Shown here piece by piece: positions 1 to 9,220 of a DNA stretch of 33,481 nucleotides (positions are counted from its first letter, which is position 1; every line of letters begins with the position of its first letter). The stretch lies in UHGV virus genome UHGV-0034894, one strand, 5' to 3'. Position numbers and translations under genes: made by a program. Under the pieces are notes generated by a model. That model saw nothing but the letters and a program-made list of their open reading frames with translations, did no database searches and was not told the DNA's origin. The stretch is from a virus.

Positions 1-141
1 GTAAAGAATGCGCGTATAATGCCCGCCCGGTTTGTGTTGTTTTGAGAGTTTCCTTATGGCGCTGTTAATCACTAAAAAATGCATCAATTGTGATATGTGT
101 GAAATTAAATAAAAATACATTTATTTTCATGGTGATGCAGT

Positions 142-165
142 AATGTGTTATTGAATGTGTTATTG
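142..165. repeat. Tandem 12-bp repeat AATGTGTTATTG x2 (plus partial third copy) in AT-rich non-coding DNA
   Basis: Read directly from sequence; function unknown. Confidence 0.5.
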
Positions 166-310
166 AATTTATGGTGCAAAAAAATTTTGCATACGTTCAG
201 CAACACAAAGAGCTCCCCTTTCTATAAAGGTTCATTTGAGACTCCCCCTTGACTCCCTCTTCGAAATTGAAGACCATTAACTGTACATAATTACAGTCCT
301 GGATAATATT

Positions 311-577
311 ATGCGCAGAAAAGAATCAAACGTTAGCAGTTTGCCGGAACTCACCAATTTTGAGGTAAGCTATTCCCTAGTTACCAATGAAGTTTACTTG
401 TCTGCATCCTTCACTGATAACATGGCCTGTATACCAAACTGGCCCTTACAAGAATTTCCGGATCAACTAATATGCATTTCTCGAGCAAAAGCTATTGCCC
501 TAATCGAAGAGCTCCAGAAGACCATCGACTATATGGACGCAGGAATCGATCGACAATCAGGTAGCCTGCTCCAGTAG
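311..577 (+). CDS. Hypothetical protein (88 aa) in AT-rich cargo region
   Basis: ORF only; weak RBS; no recognisable motif. Confidence 0.3.
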   Translation: MRRKESNVSSLPELTNFEVSYSLVTNEVYLSASFTDNMACIPNWPLQEFPDQLICISRAKAIALIEELQKTIDYMDAGIDRQSGSLLQ

Positions 578-710
578 CTGGCGAGTTTTATACTCGTTCC
601 CTGCAACAATGGGCTTTTGGTAAGGCACTCACAAATAAGGAATTCGTTAAGGCTTTTGTTCTGGAGACTCTGAAAGATACAAGGAATCAGTTGATGGCTG
701 GTTTGATCAT

Positions 711-751
711 ACTAATTAATATATTGTCAAACTCACAATATATTAATTAGT
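711..751. promoter_or_regulatory. Perfect 16-bp inverted repeat ACTAATTAATATATTG / CAATATATTAATTAGT with 9-bp spacer, about 130 bp upstream of the 281-aa cargo gene
   Basis: Palindrome read directly; candidate operator or AT-rich hairpin. Confidence 0.5.
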
Positions 752-878
752 GGTAGAACATAAAACCGAGTTCTTGACTTTCAATAGCTATTATATGCGA
801 TCAACAACCTTAACCATCTCCTTATATTTTATGAGATACTCAAACAATTTAAATTTATGAGCAAAGGAAAATAATAAA

Positions 879-1724
879 GTGAATAAAAATCCCTGGGATA
901 TTCCAGCATGGCACGCTCTGGGCCGAGAAGCATCTTTAGTTACACAGCTCATTGGTTCTGGGGCAACAGCCATAGGTAAAGCCAATTATGCAGACAAAAT
1001 AGGTGAATATTACACAGCATTTTTTGGGCTTTCTGTAGGTTTTGAGAGACTTGCTAAACTAATACTTGTTGCACACTATGCCATTGAACACAAAGGGAAA
1101 ATGCCTGATGAGAATATTGTAAGAAAATTTGGACATAAGCTCATTGAATTAACCAACGAGGTTGATAGTATTTCTAAAAAAATGCAACTATCTCTGAGAT
1201 ATTCACGTCCTACACATAAAATTACCTACAAAATACTTGAATGTTTAGATTCCTTTGCTGATGCCCGACGGGGACGTTACGCAAATTTCTCCTCATTAAG
1301 CAGCCCCAATTTAACCAATAATGAACCTATTAATAAATGGTGGGGAGAAGTAGCCGAGAGTATCCTTGAAAAACATTATTATTATACAGTTGAACAAAGA
1401 CGTGTTGAAGAAAATGCTAGGTTTATCAATGCCACTCTTTCACCGTATACAACGGTCATGTATATGAATGAAAGTACCAACATTATGCAAGACCTTATAT
1501 CAGCCTCCATCCGTACTGGACAAAATACCATTGTTCAAAAGTGGGGAAGATTCTATTCTCTTAGCATCGCTCGTTGGCTTGCCACAGTATTAGCAGAACT
1601 GTCTGATATAGCTTCTCATAAATATGGAATAATTAGTTTTTATGGCCTTAGTGAACATTGTTGCAGTTATATAGTTGAAGATAGTTTTTTAAAAAACAGA
1701 AAAATATGGCCACTTCGCCAATAG
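879..1724 (+). CDS. Orphan cargo protein (281 aa), function unknown; candidate accessory/defence gene
   Basis: GTG start with AAAGGA SD upstream; visibly AT-richer than phage genes; convergent with and abutting the truncated invertase; no family recognised. Confidence 0.6.
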   Translation: MNKNPWDIPAWHALGREASLVTQLIGSGATAIGKANYADKIGEYYTAFFGLSVGFERLAKLILVAHYAIEHKGKMPDENIVRKFGHKLIELTNEVDSISKKMQLSLRYSRPTHKITYKILECLDSFADARRGRYANFSSLSSPNLTNNEPINKWWGEVAESILEKHYYYTVEQRRVEENARFINATLSPYTTVMYMNESTNIMQDLISASIRTGQNTIVQKWGRFYSLSIARWLATVLAELSDIASHKYGIISFYGLSEHCCSYIVEDSFLKNRKIWPLRQ

Positions 1725-1728
1725 TTAA

Positions 1729-2043
1729 CTAGAAAATCTGCATAAGGGGGAGAAATCCCCCACCTGTAATAACATAACTACTAAAATTAACACCTTGTTC
1801 GCACAACTCCTCCACCAGCACGACAAGATGCCGCACACTGCGCCCCAGCCGATCCAGCTTCCAGACAACCAGAGTGTCACCTGCCGATAATGTCCTGAGC
1901 AGTTTTTTCAGTCCCGGCCTTTCGGACTTTGTACCGCTTATCTTGTCTTCAAAAAACAGCTCGCATCCTGCACAGTTCAGCGCATTACGTTGTAGATCTG
2001 TGTTCTGGTCATTTGTTGACACACGTACATAGCCAATAAGCAT
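1729..2043 (-). pseudogene. Truncated Gin/Hin/Pin-family serine DNA invertase (N-terminal about 90 aa only)
   Basis: MLIGYVRVSTNDQNTDLQRNAL...TLVVWKLDRLGRSV matches the invertase catalytic N-terminus; reading frame diverges after GVNF and stops; no other frame continues the invertase. Confidence 0.8.
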
Positions 2044-2097
2044 AGTGGATCCCTCTGACAAAAGCAGGAATGATGCCATTTGCTCGTTATTTCTGCA

Positions 2098-2123
2098 TTT
2101 TCATAAACGTTGGTTTGGGAGAA
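2098..2123. repeat. hix/gix-like 26-bp invertase crossover site (distal)
   Basis: TTTTCATAAACG-TT-GGTTTGGGAGAA; inner half-site plus core are the exact inverted copy of the site at 3920-3945. Confidence 0.7.
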
Positions 2124-2468
2124 GCGGCAAAACGGAATGTGGGCACAGGAGATAATCAGATACCGGATATGGGAGCATTCGCTTCTGGTTCGGGATGGTT
2201 CAGGCTACCAGGTGGATATATTGTTCAGTTTGGCACTTTTTCAGGAAACACGACCCGCTTTATCAGTGGACACTTCCCTATACCATTCCCTAATCAGCCG
2301 ATGATTTCAGTCAGTGTTATGTCTGATGCCGTTCAGTCAGACCCGTCGAATCCTGCCCCGCAGGTTTTGTCTGTAAATTTTGAACATATCAGTAATTCAG
2401 CGTGGCGTGTGGCAACCAGTGATATCTCACAGCAATACAGATTCAGTTATATTTCGATAGGACGGTAG
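2112..2468 (+). CDS. Alternative tail-fibre variable C-terminus (Sv'-like), silent in this orientation
   Basis: Starts at the crossover core in frame (GLGE...), no own start codon; inversion would fuse it in frame to the constant part of the fibre gene. Confidence 0.6.
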   Translation, partial: GLGEAAKRNVGTGDNQIPDMGAFASGSGWFRLPGGYIVQFGTFSGNTTRFISGHFPIPFPNQPMISVSVMSDAVQSDPSNPAPQVLSVNFEHISNSAWRVATSDISQQYRFSYISIGR

Positions 2469-2470
2469 AA

Positions 2471-2911
2471 ATGCAGAAATATATTTTCAGTGCCGATAAA
2501 AATGCGTTTTTCCCTGTGGAGCTTAAAATCGCTTATCAGGAATCCGGCGAATGGCCCGATGATGGAATCGAAATTGACGACACTGTTGCTGCCGAATTTA
2601 TGAAGGAAGCACCAGAAGGAAAATACAGAGGTGTCATCGACGGAATGCCTGCATGGATTGATATTCCACCGCCAACTCATGAGGAACAAATTGCCGCAGC
2701 CGAACTGAAAAAGCAGCAATTGATTAATCAGGTCAACGAATACATAAACAGTAAGCAATGGCCTGGTAAAGCGGCGATTGGTCGCCTGAAAGGTGAGGAA
2801 CTGGTGCAATATAATTTGTGGCTGGATTATCTGGACGCACTGGAACTGGTCGATACTTCCGGTGCGCCAGATATTGAATGGCCTACGCCTCCGGCAGTTC
2901 AGGCCAGATGA
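2471..2911 (+). CDS. Tail fibre assembly protein, alternative copy (U'-like)
   Basis: Tfa-like C-terminus (...[20 protein letters not shown]); sits inside the invertible segment. Confidence 0.7.
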   Translation: MQKYIFSADKNAFFPVELKIAYQESGEWPDDGIEIDDTVAAEFMKEAPEGKYRGVIDGMPAWIDIPPPTHEEQIAAAELKKQQLINQVNEYINSKQWPGKAAIGRLKGEELVQYNLWLDYLDALELVDTSGAPDIEWPTPPAVQAR

Positions 2912-3479
2912 CATCCGGCGCGGTGCTGGTATCTGTTGCCGTCACCGCGTCAATGTAATCCAGCACAGCGTTAAGCCGGGTTGTTTCTGCCTGCGTCAGT
3001 TTCCGCCCGGCTTGTAATTTCAGCTGAATCAGACTAATGGAAGCCATTGCTGCATCAATCAGTGACTGGCGCTGTGCTTCTGACGCGTCTACTGCGGCGC
3101 TATGCTGTGCCTCGGTATCCGTCACCCATTTCTCACCATCCCATTTATCGTATGGCGTTAACGGTGAAAGCGTGACATAACCATCTTTGATGGCACCGAT
3201 ATAATCCACTGTAACAGCTGCGCCATTTTCGATTGAGTAAACAGTCTCATTGCGATGGTCCTCTTCATGGCTCCATCCCTTACCTGTAAATACAGCCACT
3301 TTTCCCGGAATGTTTTCGCCAGGGTTAATTCCAGTGGAACAGGCGGGCATACTTACGCCAGTATTAATATATTCATCAGACCAGCCCGTATACTCAGATG
3401 TTTCAGCATCATAATAAAAACAACGCATATCGCCCGGCACTGTAGCCAGTCCATTTTCATCAAAAATTGGGGTCATCAT
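2883..3479 (-). CDS. Tail fibre assembly protein (U-like), expressed orientation
   Basis: Tfa-like conserved C-terminus (...[22 protein letters not shown]); directly downstream of the fibre gene. Confidence 0.75.
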
Positions 3480-4288
3480 TTAGCCCTCACCAGAAAGTTA
3501 AATGCAATATTTCGCGGTCTGACGGCAACAAAATTCACACCATCACCCACAGAGTTACTGGTGAAATTAAATCGTGAAAATCCTGGCTGATTTCCGGCGA
3601 TACCATCATGAAAATTAATTGTGTGGCCCGCACCATCGCCTATATTCCCGGCAAACTGAGAAAAGTTTGTAGCTGCCTGCCAGCTTAATAATTCGCGACC
3701 ACCGTCTGCACCTCGCCCGTCATCCCAGATACGAATGAAATCACCGCGGGCTTCAGGTAATACCAGCGAAGGAAACACTTTCGCCAGCACAGGGTAATCA
3801 GAGGCAGAAAATTTCGCCCCGTTAAACTTCAAAAACACCATACCGGACCAGCTGTCGATGACAGAATTTGGCATTGCAGCGGACGGCCAGAAGAACGGAA
3901 CGCCAATAGCTGGGGCACCTTCTCCCAAACCAAGGTTTTCGAGAGCTGTTTTCACCGTGCCGTCCGATTTGATATCGCCAAACGGATTCTTGCGGCTCAG
4001 GTATTCAACAGCAAACCCCGATCCCAGCAATTCAACAAAACCGGGCAGATCACCATTATCAAGCACATCCCGTTGCGTTTTATCACTTACAAACTGGGCC
4101 AGAGCTGCAGCAATAAAGCTGGCCTGCCGAATAACCTTATTGACTTGCGCACTGGAGGCTTTCCCTGCTGTAAATCCAGATAAAAGCGCGGGCAACGCTT
4201 CCCATTCCTCCTGCGATATAACATTGGCATTTCGATCCGTTGCAAACGCTTTAAAGTCATTTTTCGCCATCAGAGTAATACTCCCCAT
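3476..4288 (-). CDS. Tail fibre protein (constant N-terminus plus variable C-terminus)
   Basis: Fibre-like motif [17 protein letters not shown]; crossover site lies inside the gene; position after baseplate genes; start uncertain. Confidence 0.75.
3920..3945. repeat. hix/gix-like 26-bp invertase crossover site (proximal, inside the tail fibre gene)
   Basis: TTCTCCCAAACC-AA-GGTTTTCGAGAG resembles the hix consensus; encodes ...LENLGLGE... in the fibre. Confidence 0.7.
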
Positions 4289-7824: not shown

Positions 7825-8156
7825 TTGCTGCTCACTTTTTTACACGGGAAAGATCCAATGATTTTCGGCGCGTCCATGCTGTTCTGCAGCAGCTGGACGT
7901 TCAGGAAAGCTTTTCCGTTACGTTTCACAAACTCAAAGCCGTAATTGTTACCATCACGGGAAGGCATCAGGCCCATGTCCATTTTCATGTTTGAATAGTC
8001 ACCATCTTTTCCCAGAAATTTTATCTTCTGTGATGTGACAGTTTCACCGTTAATAACAGTCATTCCGTCACCGGTCATCGTGTAGTTGCCGCACTGAATT
8101 GCAGCCATCGCCGGAGCAGTAACCATCATAACTAACGCCAAACATAACCGTTTCAT
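7821..8156 (-). CDS. Small secreted/periplasmic protein (111 aa) with Sec signal peptide
   Basis: N-terminus MKRLCLALVMMVTAPAMAA is a typical signal peptide; start overlaps stop of hub gene. Confidence 0.6.
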   Translation of the reverse strand: MKRLCLALVMMVTAPAMAAIQCGNYTMTGDGMTVINGETVTSQKIKFLGKDGDYSNMKMDMGLMPSRDGNNYGFEFVKRNGKAFLNVQLLQNSMDAPKIIGSFPCKKVSSK

Positions 8157-9220
8157 TAAAGCCCTCTTTCCCTCGCTGATGAGGAAACAAGATCCGCCGC
8201 GCCACGCGCTTCACACATCATATCCATGTACCACGCCTGGCCCCTTGTGTCGCCAGTGTACATAATCCCGCGCACAATATAAACGCCATCCGTTGCGATG
8301 CTGGCAGGCTGCGATGTGGTGCCGCTGAGCGTGATATTTCCGTCCGTGTTCTGGTCGGTGATCTGACCACCAGCCATCGCAATATCGTTGTTCGACAACG
8401 CGGTACGATAGACGGAAGCCTGATCCAGCTGAATGAGCCCGTTAACCCGGATGTTCGGATTAATAAGCGCGCGGACGTTTACGCCGTTACCGATAGTCTG
8501 CTGCGGCATTCCAATAAGCCCGGTAGCGCTGTTGAGCACAATCGCTTCGTGAACATATTCGTTATTCACCACCATCTGGCGCTGACCGTCCACGAATTGC
8601 CATGTTGCGCCACATTGTCCGGCTACGTTATCCATTAGATGCCGCGTCATGCCAAAGAGTACCCGCCCCCGGGGGAATACAGTAGCAGGCATTTCAGGCG
8701 TCAGGCCTTCGGTCGCGCCTTTGGCTTCGAAGTCTTTCATCAGCGCACGGTTCACATCAGCGACCGTGTAACCGGCAGCCAGCGTCTGTGAGGTTATACT
8801 GGTAGCAAAAGCCAGATCAGTATCTGCTGCCTGAATCAGGACGTAGGTATCAACCGGACTGTCTTTTCCTGTGACCGAGTAGCGAATTTCACCGCTGAAA
8901 ATCAGTCCGTAGTTGCGGCCATCTCTCTGGCCCACGTCCGCCGCGTCAACTTCCCGCACGGTCCCTACGTCGCTTGCTGACACCTCCGGCGCGATACCGT
9001 CGTAACCGGCAATCAGACGCACTTTCGAAAACTCCTGCCCGGTAATTCGGTTCACAGTATCTGCCGAGAGGTTATAAATTTTGATAGTCCCTACCCGGGA
9101 CGCGCTGCTGATGTTGAACCAGTCGATCGTAAAGGTGACTTTGAAATCACTTAGCTCAATTCCCTGACCGTTCCCGTCCACAAGCTGCAGCTCGAAATGT
9201 CTCATCCAGTTCTGTGACAT
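8156..9220 (-). CDS. Tail/baseplate hub protein (P2 gpD / Mu P-like)
   Basis: Size and position downstream of tape measure and small tail proteins. Confidence 0.55.
   Translation of the reverse strand: MSQNWMRHFELQLVDGNGQGIELSDFKVTFTIDWFNISSASRVGTIKIYNLSADTVNRITGQEFSKVRLIAGYDGIAPEVSASDVGTVREVDAADVGQRDGRNYGLIFSGEIRYSVTGKDSPVDTYVLIQAADTDLAFATSITSQTLAAGYTVADVNRALMKDFEAKGATEGLTPEMPATVFPRGRVLFGMTRHLMDNVAGQCGATWQFVDGQRQMVVNNEYVHEAIVLNSATGLIGMPQQTIGNGVNVRALINPNIRVNGLIQLDQASVYRTALSNNDIAMAGGQITDQNTDGNITLSGTTSQPASIATDGVYIVRGIMYTGDTRGQAWYMDMMCEARGAADLVSSSARERGL

Follow-up and report, generated by a model that had tools for sequence, protein, structure and literature searches.

Can a tail-fiber inversion switch still be flipped once its own invertase has been broken? 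The question is raised by a locus in the virus genome UHGV-0034894, a stretch of DNA of 33,481 base pairs (bp) that was analyzed over its whole length and is referred to here as the window. At this locus a segment carrying two alternative tail-fiber tips lies between two inverted crossover sites, next to a truncated gene for a Pin-type serine invertase. Based on the evidence presented below, the locus is very probably an orphaned Pin-type switch, locked in cells that lack a compatible invertase and flippable by one that is provided in trans. The new observation is that genomes sharing one and the same truncated invertase hold the segment in both orientations.

Both orientations of the segment in natural genomes

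The invertible segment comprises 1822 bp (2111-3932, assigned to neither strand) and was delimited by comparison with strain 22AR0747 (L002), in which the same position is occupied by its exact reverse complement (1822/1822) between identical flanks. This inversion is the sole difference between 22AR0747 and the window, and the fiber protein encoded by this strain is the one obtained when the window is flipped in silico. In eighteen complete genomes the junction is that of the window, with an identity of 99.9% or more, and in three others (22AR0747, MSB1_6C, and 1296KP) this flank and the truncated gene are present at 100% identity together with the opposite junction. Since the truncation junction is common to both orientations, the inversions came after the loss of the invertase.

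Besides 22AR0747, four or more other lineages or cassette variants exhibit the same flip. A precise inversion distinguishes strains 97-3250 and O111:H11 8D, which belong to a lineage of Shiga toxin-producing Escherichia coli (STEC) with another cassette. Three of the 25 largest contigs with the exact truncated protein of 104 residues are flipped (L014, L016, and L017) and contain different cassette variants, L017 being the flip of L015. The segment exists, as seen between strains, in both orientations, with its breakpoints at the crossover sites.

The frequency of each orientation was estimated from the number of contigs encoding the exact protein sequences. For the window type, with truncated pin, the native fiber was found on 658 contigs and the flipped fiber on 56 (minor form, 8%), and the truncated gene was present on all of the 25 contigs with the native fiber that were examined. 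The O55:H7 type, with intact pin, gave 130 native and 103 flipped contigs (44%), and the cassette of strain 82.0312 (L004) gave 59 and 29 (33%). The STEC pair gave 556 and 170 contigs (23%), where "native" denotes the commoner form and "flipped" the rarer. The skew observed in the window lineage fits a switch that is now rarely flipped and is otherwise inherited as found. The exact 104-residue truncated protein occurs in 1744 blocks of the collection.

Crossover sites and organization of the fiber cassette

The invertase-proximal crossover site is of the pix type (site 1; 2098-2123, plus strand, core TT at 2110-2111) and reads TTTTCATAAACG-TT-GGTTTGGGAGAA, while the fiber-side site (site 2; 3920-3945, plus strand, core AA at 3932-3933) reads TTCTCCCAAACC-AA-GGTTTTCGAGAG. 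The reverse complement of the latter is CTCTCGAAAACC TT GGTTTGGGAGAA; the two sites are inverted relative to each other and have the same inner half-site and the same 2-bp core. Each is identical at 26/26 positions to its counterpart in the P segment of e14, a cryptic prophage of E. coli K-12, that is, the pin-proximal and the fiber-side site, respectively. The distance from the center of site 1 to the ATG of the invertase gene is 67.5 bp, the same as in e14 and in phage Mu. A scan of the 33,481 bp with the hix/gix/pix consensus TTNTCNNAAACCWWGGTTTNNGANAA, allowing up to three mismatches, retrieved just these two sites with one mismatch each, against a chance expectation of 0.01; two or more matches were obtained in 0/100 shuffled sequences. 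A repeat finder detected a 20-nucleotide (nt) inverted repeat at the same two places, with 95% complementarity and arms 1794 nt apart, although the perfect homology between the sites covers only about 15 bp. Inverted, imperfectly palindromic sites of 26 bp with matching 2-bp cores are those of the Din-family (Hin/Gin/Cin/Pin) inversion systems.

A separate, perfect inverted repeat of 13 nt links window 2088-2100 (TATTTCTGCATTT) with 2469-2481 (AAATGCAGAAATA). It corresponds to the start of the silent chaperone gene, copied in inverted orientation into the spacer that separates the invertase gene from the crossover site, and may be the scar of an earlier cassette rearrangement.

The fiber gene is encoded on the minus strand (264 residues, 3476-4270), preceded on that strand by baseplate genes (spike, sheath initiator, baseplate J, and a DUF2612 wedge). 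Site 2 is located within this gene (3476-4270/4288), where it encodes ENLGLGEG. The segment does not include residues 1 to about 108, which form the constant N-terminal part of the fiber (about 108 residues; 3946-4270, minus strand). This part matches phrog_11303 and phrog_1396 over residues 1-120 and is the same across all cassette variants. Inside the segment there are two convergent pairs, each composed of a fiber tip and an assembly chaperone. The currently expressed pair consists of a variable tip of the tail-collar type (3476-3919, minus strand; phrog_3100 and phrog_523 over fiber residues 104-264) and its chaperone (2883-3479, minus strand; Pfam Caudo_TAP, E = 5e-26). The silent pair, on the plus strand, contains an alternative tip with a gp53-like C-terminal domain (2124-2468; Pfam PF21882, E = 3e-9, and PHROG tail-fiber families), whose RefSeq open reading frame (ORF) begins at 2070, and the partner chaperone of this tip (2471-2911; Caudo_TAP, E = 9e-34). 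Inversion of 2111-3932 in silico produces an in-frame fiber of 231 residues with the gp53-like tip, which is the annotated protein of a naturally flipped genome. The locus is a tail-fiber host-range cassette of the S/U - S'/U' type, with a constant N-terminus outside and two pairs of tip and Caudo_TAP chaperone inside, in frame either way.

In strain 82.0312 (L004 4771-7009) the truncated invertase is 100% identical, but another silent pair of tip and chaperone adjoins it. L015 and L017 likewise contain the same truncated invertase beside a different silent pair. As the pairs differ next to an identical truncated invertase, the cassette contents have been exchanged between prophages as well as inverted.

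These observations agree with most of an initial annotation made from the letters of the window. It had described an invertible fiber cassette of the Hin/Gin/Cin/Pin type with intact crossover sites, two 26-bp inverted sites sharing the inner half-site and core, and an in-frame exchange of tip and chaperone upon inversion; the site sequences and the gene content conform to this description, the consensus comparison that it had suggested as a check recovered both sites, and the flipped protein predicted in silico occurs in nature. Its likening of the locus to the Mu G segment was right as to the invertible fiber cassette and has to be corrected as to kinship, since the locus is closest to the Pin/P segment of e14 and its carrier is not Mu-like.

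Loss of the invertase 3' half and retention of the presumed enhancer region

The ORF of the truncated pin-type serine invertase (1729-2043, minus strand) encodes 104 residues, of which 1-87 are authentic and the last 17 derive from a block of replacement DNA. Its start, MLIGYVRVSTNDQ, tracks full-length Pin (181-184 residues) to about residue 87, where unrelated sequence follows up to a stop. The Pfam Resolvase match covers profile positions 2-98 of 145, a Pfam search of this ORF detected no helix-turn-helix (HTH) domain, and RefSeq labels the ORF as a pseudogene "missing C-terminus". The Resolvase match, the Pin alignment and the RefSeq call bear out the truncation that had been reported in the initial annotation. 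Over residues 1-87 the identity amounts to 82/87 with K-12 PinE, 66/87 with Gin, and 36/87 with PinQ. As predicted from its sequence, the invertase adjacent to the cassette lacks the complete catalytic domain, the helix E, and the C-terminal HTH domain that characterize the Din family.

The origin of the truncation can be traced by comparison with the O55:H7 strain CB9615, which has the same prophage at the same chromosomal site with pinE intact at 182 residues. In a blastn alignment with this intact version (L007), window 1-592 and 1777-2171 align, and a low-GC block of 1184 bp (593-1776, no strand assigned; 37% GC) stands in place of L007 4794-5838, which holds an unrelated ORF of 215 residues and the last 282 bp of pinE. 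The right edge of the block is the break that took off the 3' half of the invertase gene. Given that the block replaces the pin 3' end in this comparison, the truncation arose as a side effect of cargo exchange at this end of the prophage, and the region between the left attachment site (attL) and the invertase looks like a hot spot for such swaps. The block contains an ORF of 281 residues (879-1724, plus strand) with no match in Pfam, PHROGs, or PADLOC, which may be an uncharacterized accessory or defense gene.

The part of the invertase gene that was retained includes, in its entirety, a presumed Fis-dependent recombinational enhancer (1959-2022, minus strand), which is proposed from conservation and from its spacing, the same as in e14 and Mu. 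Of its two 15-mers, the proximal one, GTGTCAACAAATGAC (2008-2022), has its center 95.5 bp from the center of the site, in Mu gin as well. About 49 bp beyond it, a G...C 15-mer, GTGCAGGATGCGAGC (1959-1973), would be the distal Fis site as judged from the Fis consensus. Over its initial 103 bp the invertase gene agrees with e14 pinE at 100/103 positions. In the Hin system the enhancer is located about 100 bp from the proximal site (PMC3798978).

Candidate invertases acting in trans

No other serine recombinase is annotated anywhere in the whole prophage, and a flip of the segment would then call for an enzyme encoded elsewhere. It is established that Hin, Gin, Cin, and Pin can complement one another. 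Kirigo et al. 2025 (PMC12529663) showed that PinQ acts in trans to invert the P segment of e14 and that this segment stays in one orientation when pinE is deleted; the inverted repeats given in that study, TTGGTTTGGGAGAAGG, are those found here.

Candidates were sought with chimeric queries, each composed of a unique flank and a test sequence, and the matching places were counted per chromosome; the assay for the C-terminal half of pinE picks up divergence as great as that of Gin. Other copies of this half were absent from 17 of the 18 genomes with the window orientation, 097H6 having one, and among the flipped genomes one copy each was found in 22AR0747 and MSB1_6C and none in 1296KP. The pinQ test sequence had a copy in 8 of the 18 and, among the flipped genomes, in 1296KP alone. 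All three flipped complete genomes have at least one candidate (a PinE-like C-terminal half or a PinQ-like gene) elsewhere on the chromosome, and 10 of the 18 complete genomes with the window orientation have no PinE/Gin-like or PinQ-like invertase on the chromosome, WP3-W18-ESBL-08 and KKa019 being examples of window-type strains of this sort. The association of flipping with candidate presence gave p = 0.04 for PinE-like candidates and p = 0.12 for any candidate (one-sided hypergeometric test, in related strains).

All genomes resembling sequence type 38 (ST38) that contain the locus have one further pin-like N-terminal match elsewhere on the chromosome. This match is probably not a functional invertase, as no C-terminal half accompanies it. 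The K-12 pseudogene pinH (L021 11066-11305) is a fragment of this kind, 83% identical over window 1780-1920, and is likely the counterpart of the extra fragment in the ST38-like genomes.

A switch without its own invertase and the alternatives

Altogether, the evidence is best accommodated by a model in which the locus is a Pin/P-segment-type site-specific switch at the tail-fiber end of a SEN34-like prophage in yfhL. Inversion between the two 26-bp pix sites joins the constant 5' part of the fiber gene to either the tail-collar or the gp53-like tip, each carrying its own assembly chaperone after it. When a low-GC cargo gene replaced the neighboring DNA, the invertase lost everything past codon 87, namely, the end of the catalytic domain, the oligomerization helix, and the DNA-binding domain, and because of this loss the locus cannot flip itself. 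The cis elements were kept: the two sites have the same core, and the presumed enhancer region is part of what remains of the invertase gene. Since all of these survive, a compatible serine invertase from another prophage or from a plasmid could still invert the segment. In a cell with no compatible invertase the orientation would be frozen and inherited. The flips are most plausibly made by invertases of co-resident elements, and we infer that the catalyst is a Din-family enzyme provided in trans, which would work with Fis and the retained enhancer region.

The initial annotation had likewise held that the switch is locked unless an invertase acts in trans. Support for this comes from the occurrence of both orientations with the identical truncated gene, from the proportion of the minor form (8% vs 44% with intact pin), and from the 10 of 18 window-orientation genomes with no candidate invertase on the chromosome. 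"Locked" needs a refinement, as it is a state of particular cells and not a permanent property of the locus.

Several points weigh against this reading. Fis binding and enhancer function at 1959-2022 are proposed from sequence conservation. The assay for trans-acting invertases covered chromosomes and gives counts of matching places, which in the flipped genomes mark candidates and not located, full-length genes. Flipping and the carriage of an invertase are associated in a merely suggestive way, since the statistics are weak and the strains phylogenetically non-independent. Strain 1296KP has just a PinQ-like candidate, and eight unflipped strains have one as well. The contig counts for the STEC, L004-type, and O55:H7 cassettes take in every contig with the exact fiber protein, whatever the state of its invertase gene.

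A different account of the flipped alleles is that the locus is a dead fossil that never inverts and that these alleles were imported by homologous recombination from relatives with an intact invertase. Cassette contents do move between prophages, as evidenced by the different tip and chaperone pair next to the identical truncated gene in 82.0312, and the cassette is a mosaic relative to e14. Against import, the inversion is all that sets 22AR0747 apart from the window. Once inverted, the segment agrees at 1822/1822 positions, and the flanks agree at 100%, even across the truncation junction, which is only about 335 bp away from the site; import would need crossovers inside this flank of about 335 bp on one side and would probably have brought polymorphisms with it. 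The pattern, moreover, is seen again in four or more other lineages or variants, all of which match their own unflipped counterparts, and we consider import very unlikely.

Trans-acting site-specific inversion has also to be weighed against general recombination, either RecA-dependent or based on short homology, across the 20-nt inverted repeat and with no site-specific invertase involved. Breakpoints located within the shared repeat are not separable by sequence from those of a site-specific crossover, and 1296KP is flipped with no PinE-like gene on its chromosome. However, efficient RecA recombination needs more perfect homology than the approximately 15 bp available here. Flips recur in several lineages, in 8-33% of assemblies, and the same sites are locked in K-12 cells without PinE (PMC12529663), which makes general recombination very doubtful indeed. 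As to the idea that the 104-residue truncated protein still catalyzes inversion, alone or with another protein, its ORF is open, the region of the catalytic serine (MLIGYVRVST...) is kept, and the exact protein is very widespread, as the 1744 blocks attest. Yet the protein ends before its catalytic domain is complete and has neither helix E nor any of the C-terminal DNA-binding domain, and the last two are required by Hin and Gin to bind the site and to form the tetramer (PMC4513852, PMC3798978). In addition, the ratio of the two orientations is strongly skewed compared with the lineage with intact pin, and activity of the truncated protein is scarcely credible.

Starting from inversion by a trans-acting enzyme, an unlikely extension can be put forward, namely, that the orphaned cassette is kept as a switch run by other mobile elements. 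Invertases of co-resident prophages or plasmids would then set the host range of the virion or else, in the manner reported for the e14 chimera StfE2, an anti-phage or surface property of the lysogenic cell. If true, control by other elements would explain that both sites, the enhancer region, and both pairs of tip and chaperone are intact in a very widespread truncated lineage.

The carrier prophage

The carrier element has about 42 kilobases (kb) and is integrated in yfhL of E. coli, with a tyrosine integrase at its far end. Its best match to a real phage is Salmonella phage SEN34 (81% identity over 61% of the query), which has been named as a Brunovirus (PMC12945033). The carrier is a SEN34-like temperate myovirus prophage, apparently complete; a Mu-like prophage is ruled out by SEN34 as the best real-phage match, by the tyrosine integrase, and by the location in yfhL. 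Window 56-110 contains a duplicated 5' end of yfhL (MALLITKKCINCDMCE...), which is apparently the left attachment site, and an intact yfhL and the tyrosine integrase are found past the right end of the window (L018 40827-42700).

Matches at 100% to database "phages" were rejected as proof of virion production, given that ON470579, ON470588, ON470593, and ON470582 contain the host genes tadA, yfhB, and yfhH. The records named "Escherichia phage vB_EcoM-..." (ON470579 and related; L011) are predicted prophage regions and not sequenced virions.

Other genes of the carrier deserve mention. The window contains an intact ORF of 354 residues for a tail or baseplate protein (8156-9220, minus strand), in which a single base difference at 8584 introduces an internal stop in strain 15.TR.026_OXA, where RefSeq annotates a pseudogene; the window is a different, possibly more intact, copy than that of this strain. 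In the early region of the same prophage, past the window end, a gene for a TIR-domain protein (L018 36768-37529) is accompanied by SNF2-related and VRR-NUC genes, which are possible defense cargo.

Significance

Knowledge of Din-type fiber switches and of their cross-complementation goes back to the 1980s, and the locus reveals no new mechanism; it represents a familiar type of switch that has decayed. It offers, however, a natural experiment in which one truncation event, present in hundreds of assemblies, allows the flipping of an orphaned switch to be read from genomes, at about 8% vs about 44% in the relative with intact pin. The several independent flips that are visible suggest that a prophage can have its host-range determinant reset by other mobile elements in the same cell. 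In a systematic survey of programmed inversions, DUF2612 neighbors and tail-fiber genes were enriched (PMC9881135). For annotation purposes, the designation "orphan invertible cassette" is preferable to a set of unrelated partial fiber genes.

Comparison with known inversion systems

The closest known system is the Pin/P segment of e14 in E. coli K-12 (pinE, stfP-tfaP / tfaE-stfE). Both 26-bp sites are the same base for base, and the likeness extends to the 67.5-bp spacing, the 100/103 positions at the gene start, the 82/87 residues of the invertase, and a segment of about 1.8 kb in both. The order of elements is also shared, with a constant 5' part of the fiber, two convergent pairs of tip and chaperone with overlapping chaperone genes, and then the invertase. 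Conversely, the invertase is intact in e14 and truncated here, e14 is a remnant at icd whereas the present carrier is an apparently complete 42-kb SEN34-like prophage in yfhL, and the stfP/stfE tips are mostly unrelated to those of the window at the DNA level. Between the two cassettes, matches (94-95%) are confined to the chaperone 3' ends, the site regions, and the pin 5' end. Judged by these alignments, the locus is orthologous to the e14 P segment in its pix sites and its pinE-type invertase, and differs from it in carrier and in tips.

Mu, with its Gin/G segment, and P1, with its Cin/C segment, share with the locus a constant fiber part, S/U and S'/U'-like pairs, and a downstream invertase oriented as the fiber gene; the site-to-start spacing and the position of the proximal 15-mer of the presumed enhancer (95.5 bp) are further similarities with Mu. 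The gix sites of Mu, in contrast, read TTATCCAAAACC TC GGTTTACAGGAA, with a TC core instead of TT. Gin is identical at 66/87 residues, the G segment has 3 kb, and the Mu fiber is much longer; Mu is a transposable phage, unlike the present prophage with its tyrosine integrase and attachment-site duplication in yfhL. The defining features of a Mu-like G segment, i.e., gix sites, Gin, and a transposable Mu-type genome, are all absent. The Hin/H segment of Salmonella resembles the locus in its 26-bp sites and in the same half-site consensus, and its enhancer, within the gene of the invertase and some 100 bp away from the proximal site, is placed like the presumed one here; it differs in that the H segment carries a promoter for flagellin genes and not alternative coding ends of a fiber.

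The action of PinQ and PinR, encoded by Qin and Rac, on the e14 P segment (PMC12529663) provides the nearest parallel for the proposed mode of flipping, as the invertase of one prophage inverts the fiber cassette of another across identical repeats. The K-12 target keeps its own PinE, whereas at the locus described here action in trans, as deduced from genome comparison, would be the sole route by which the segment is inverted.

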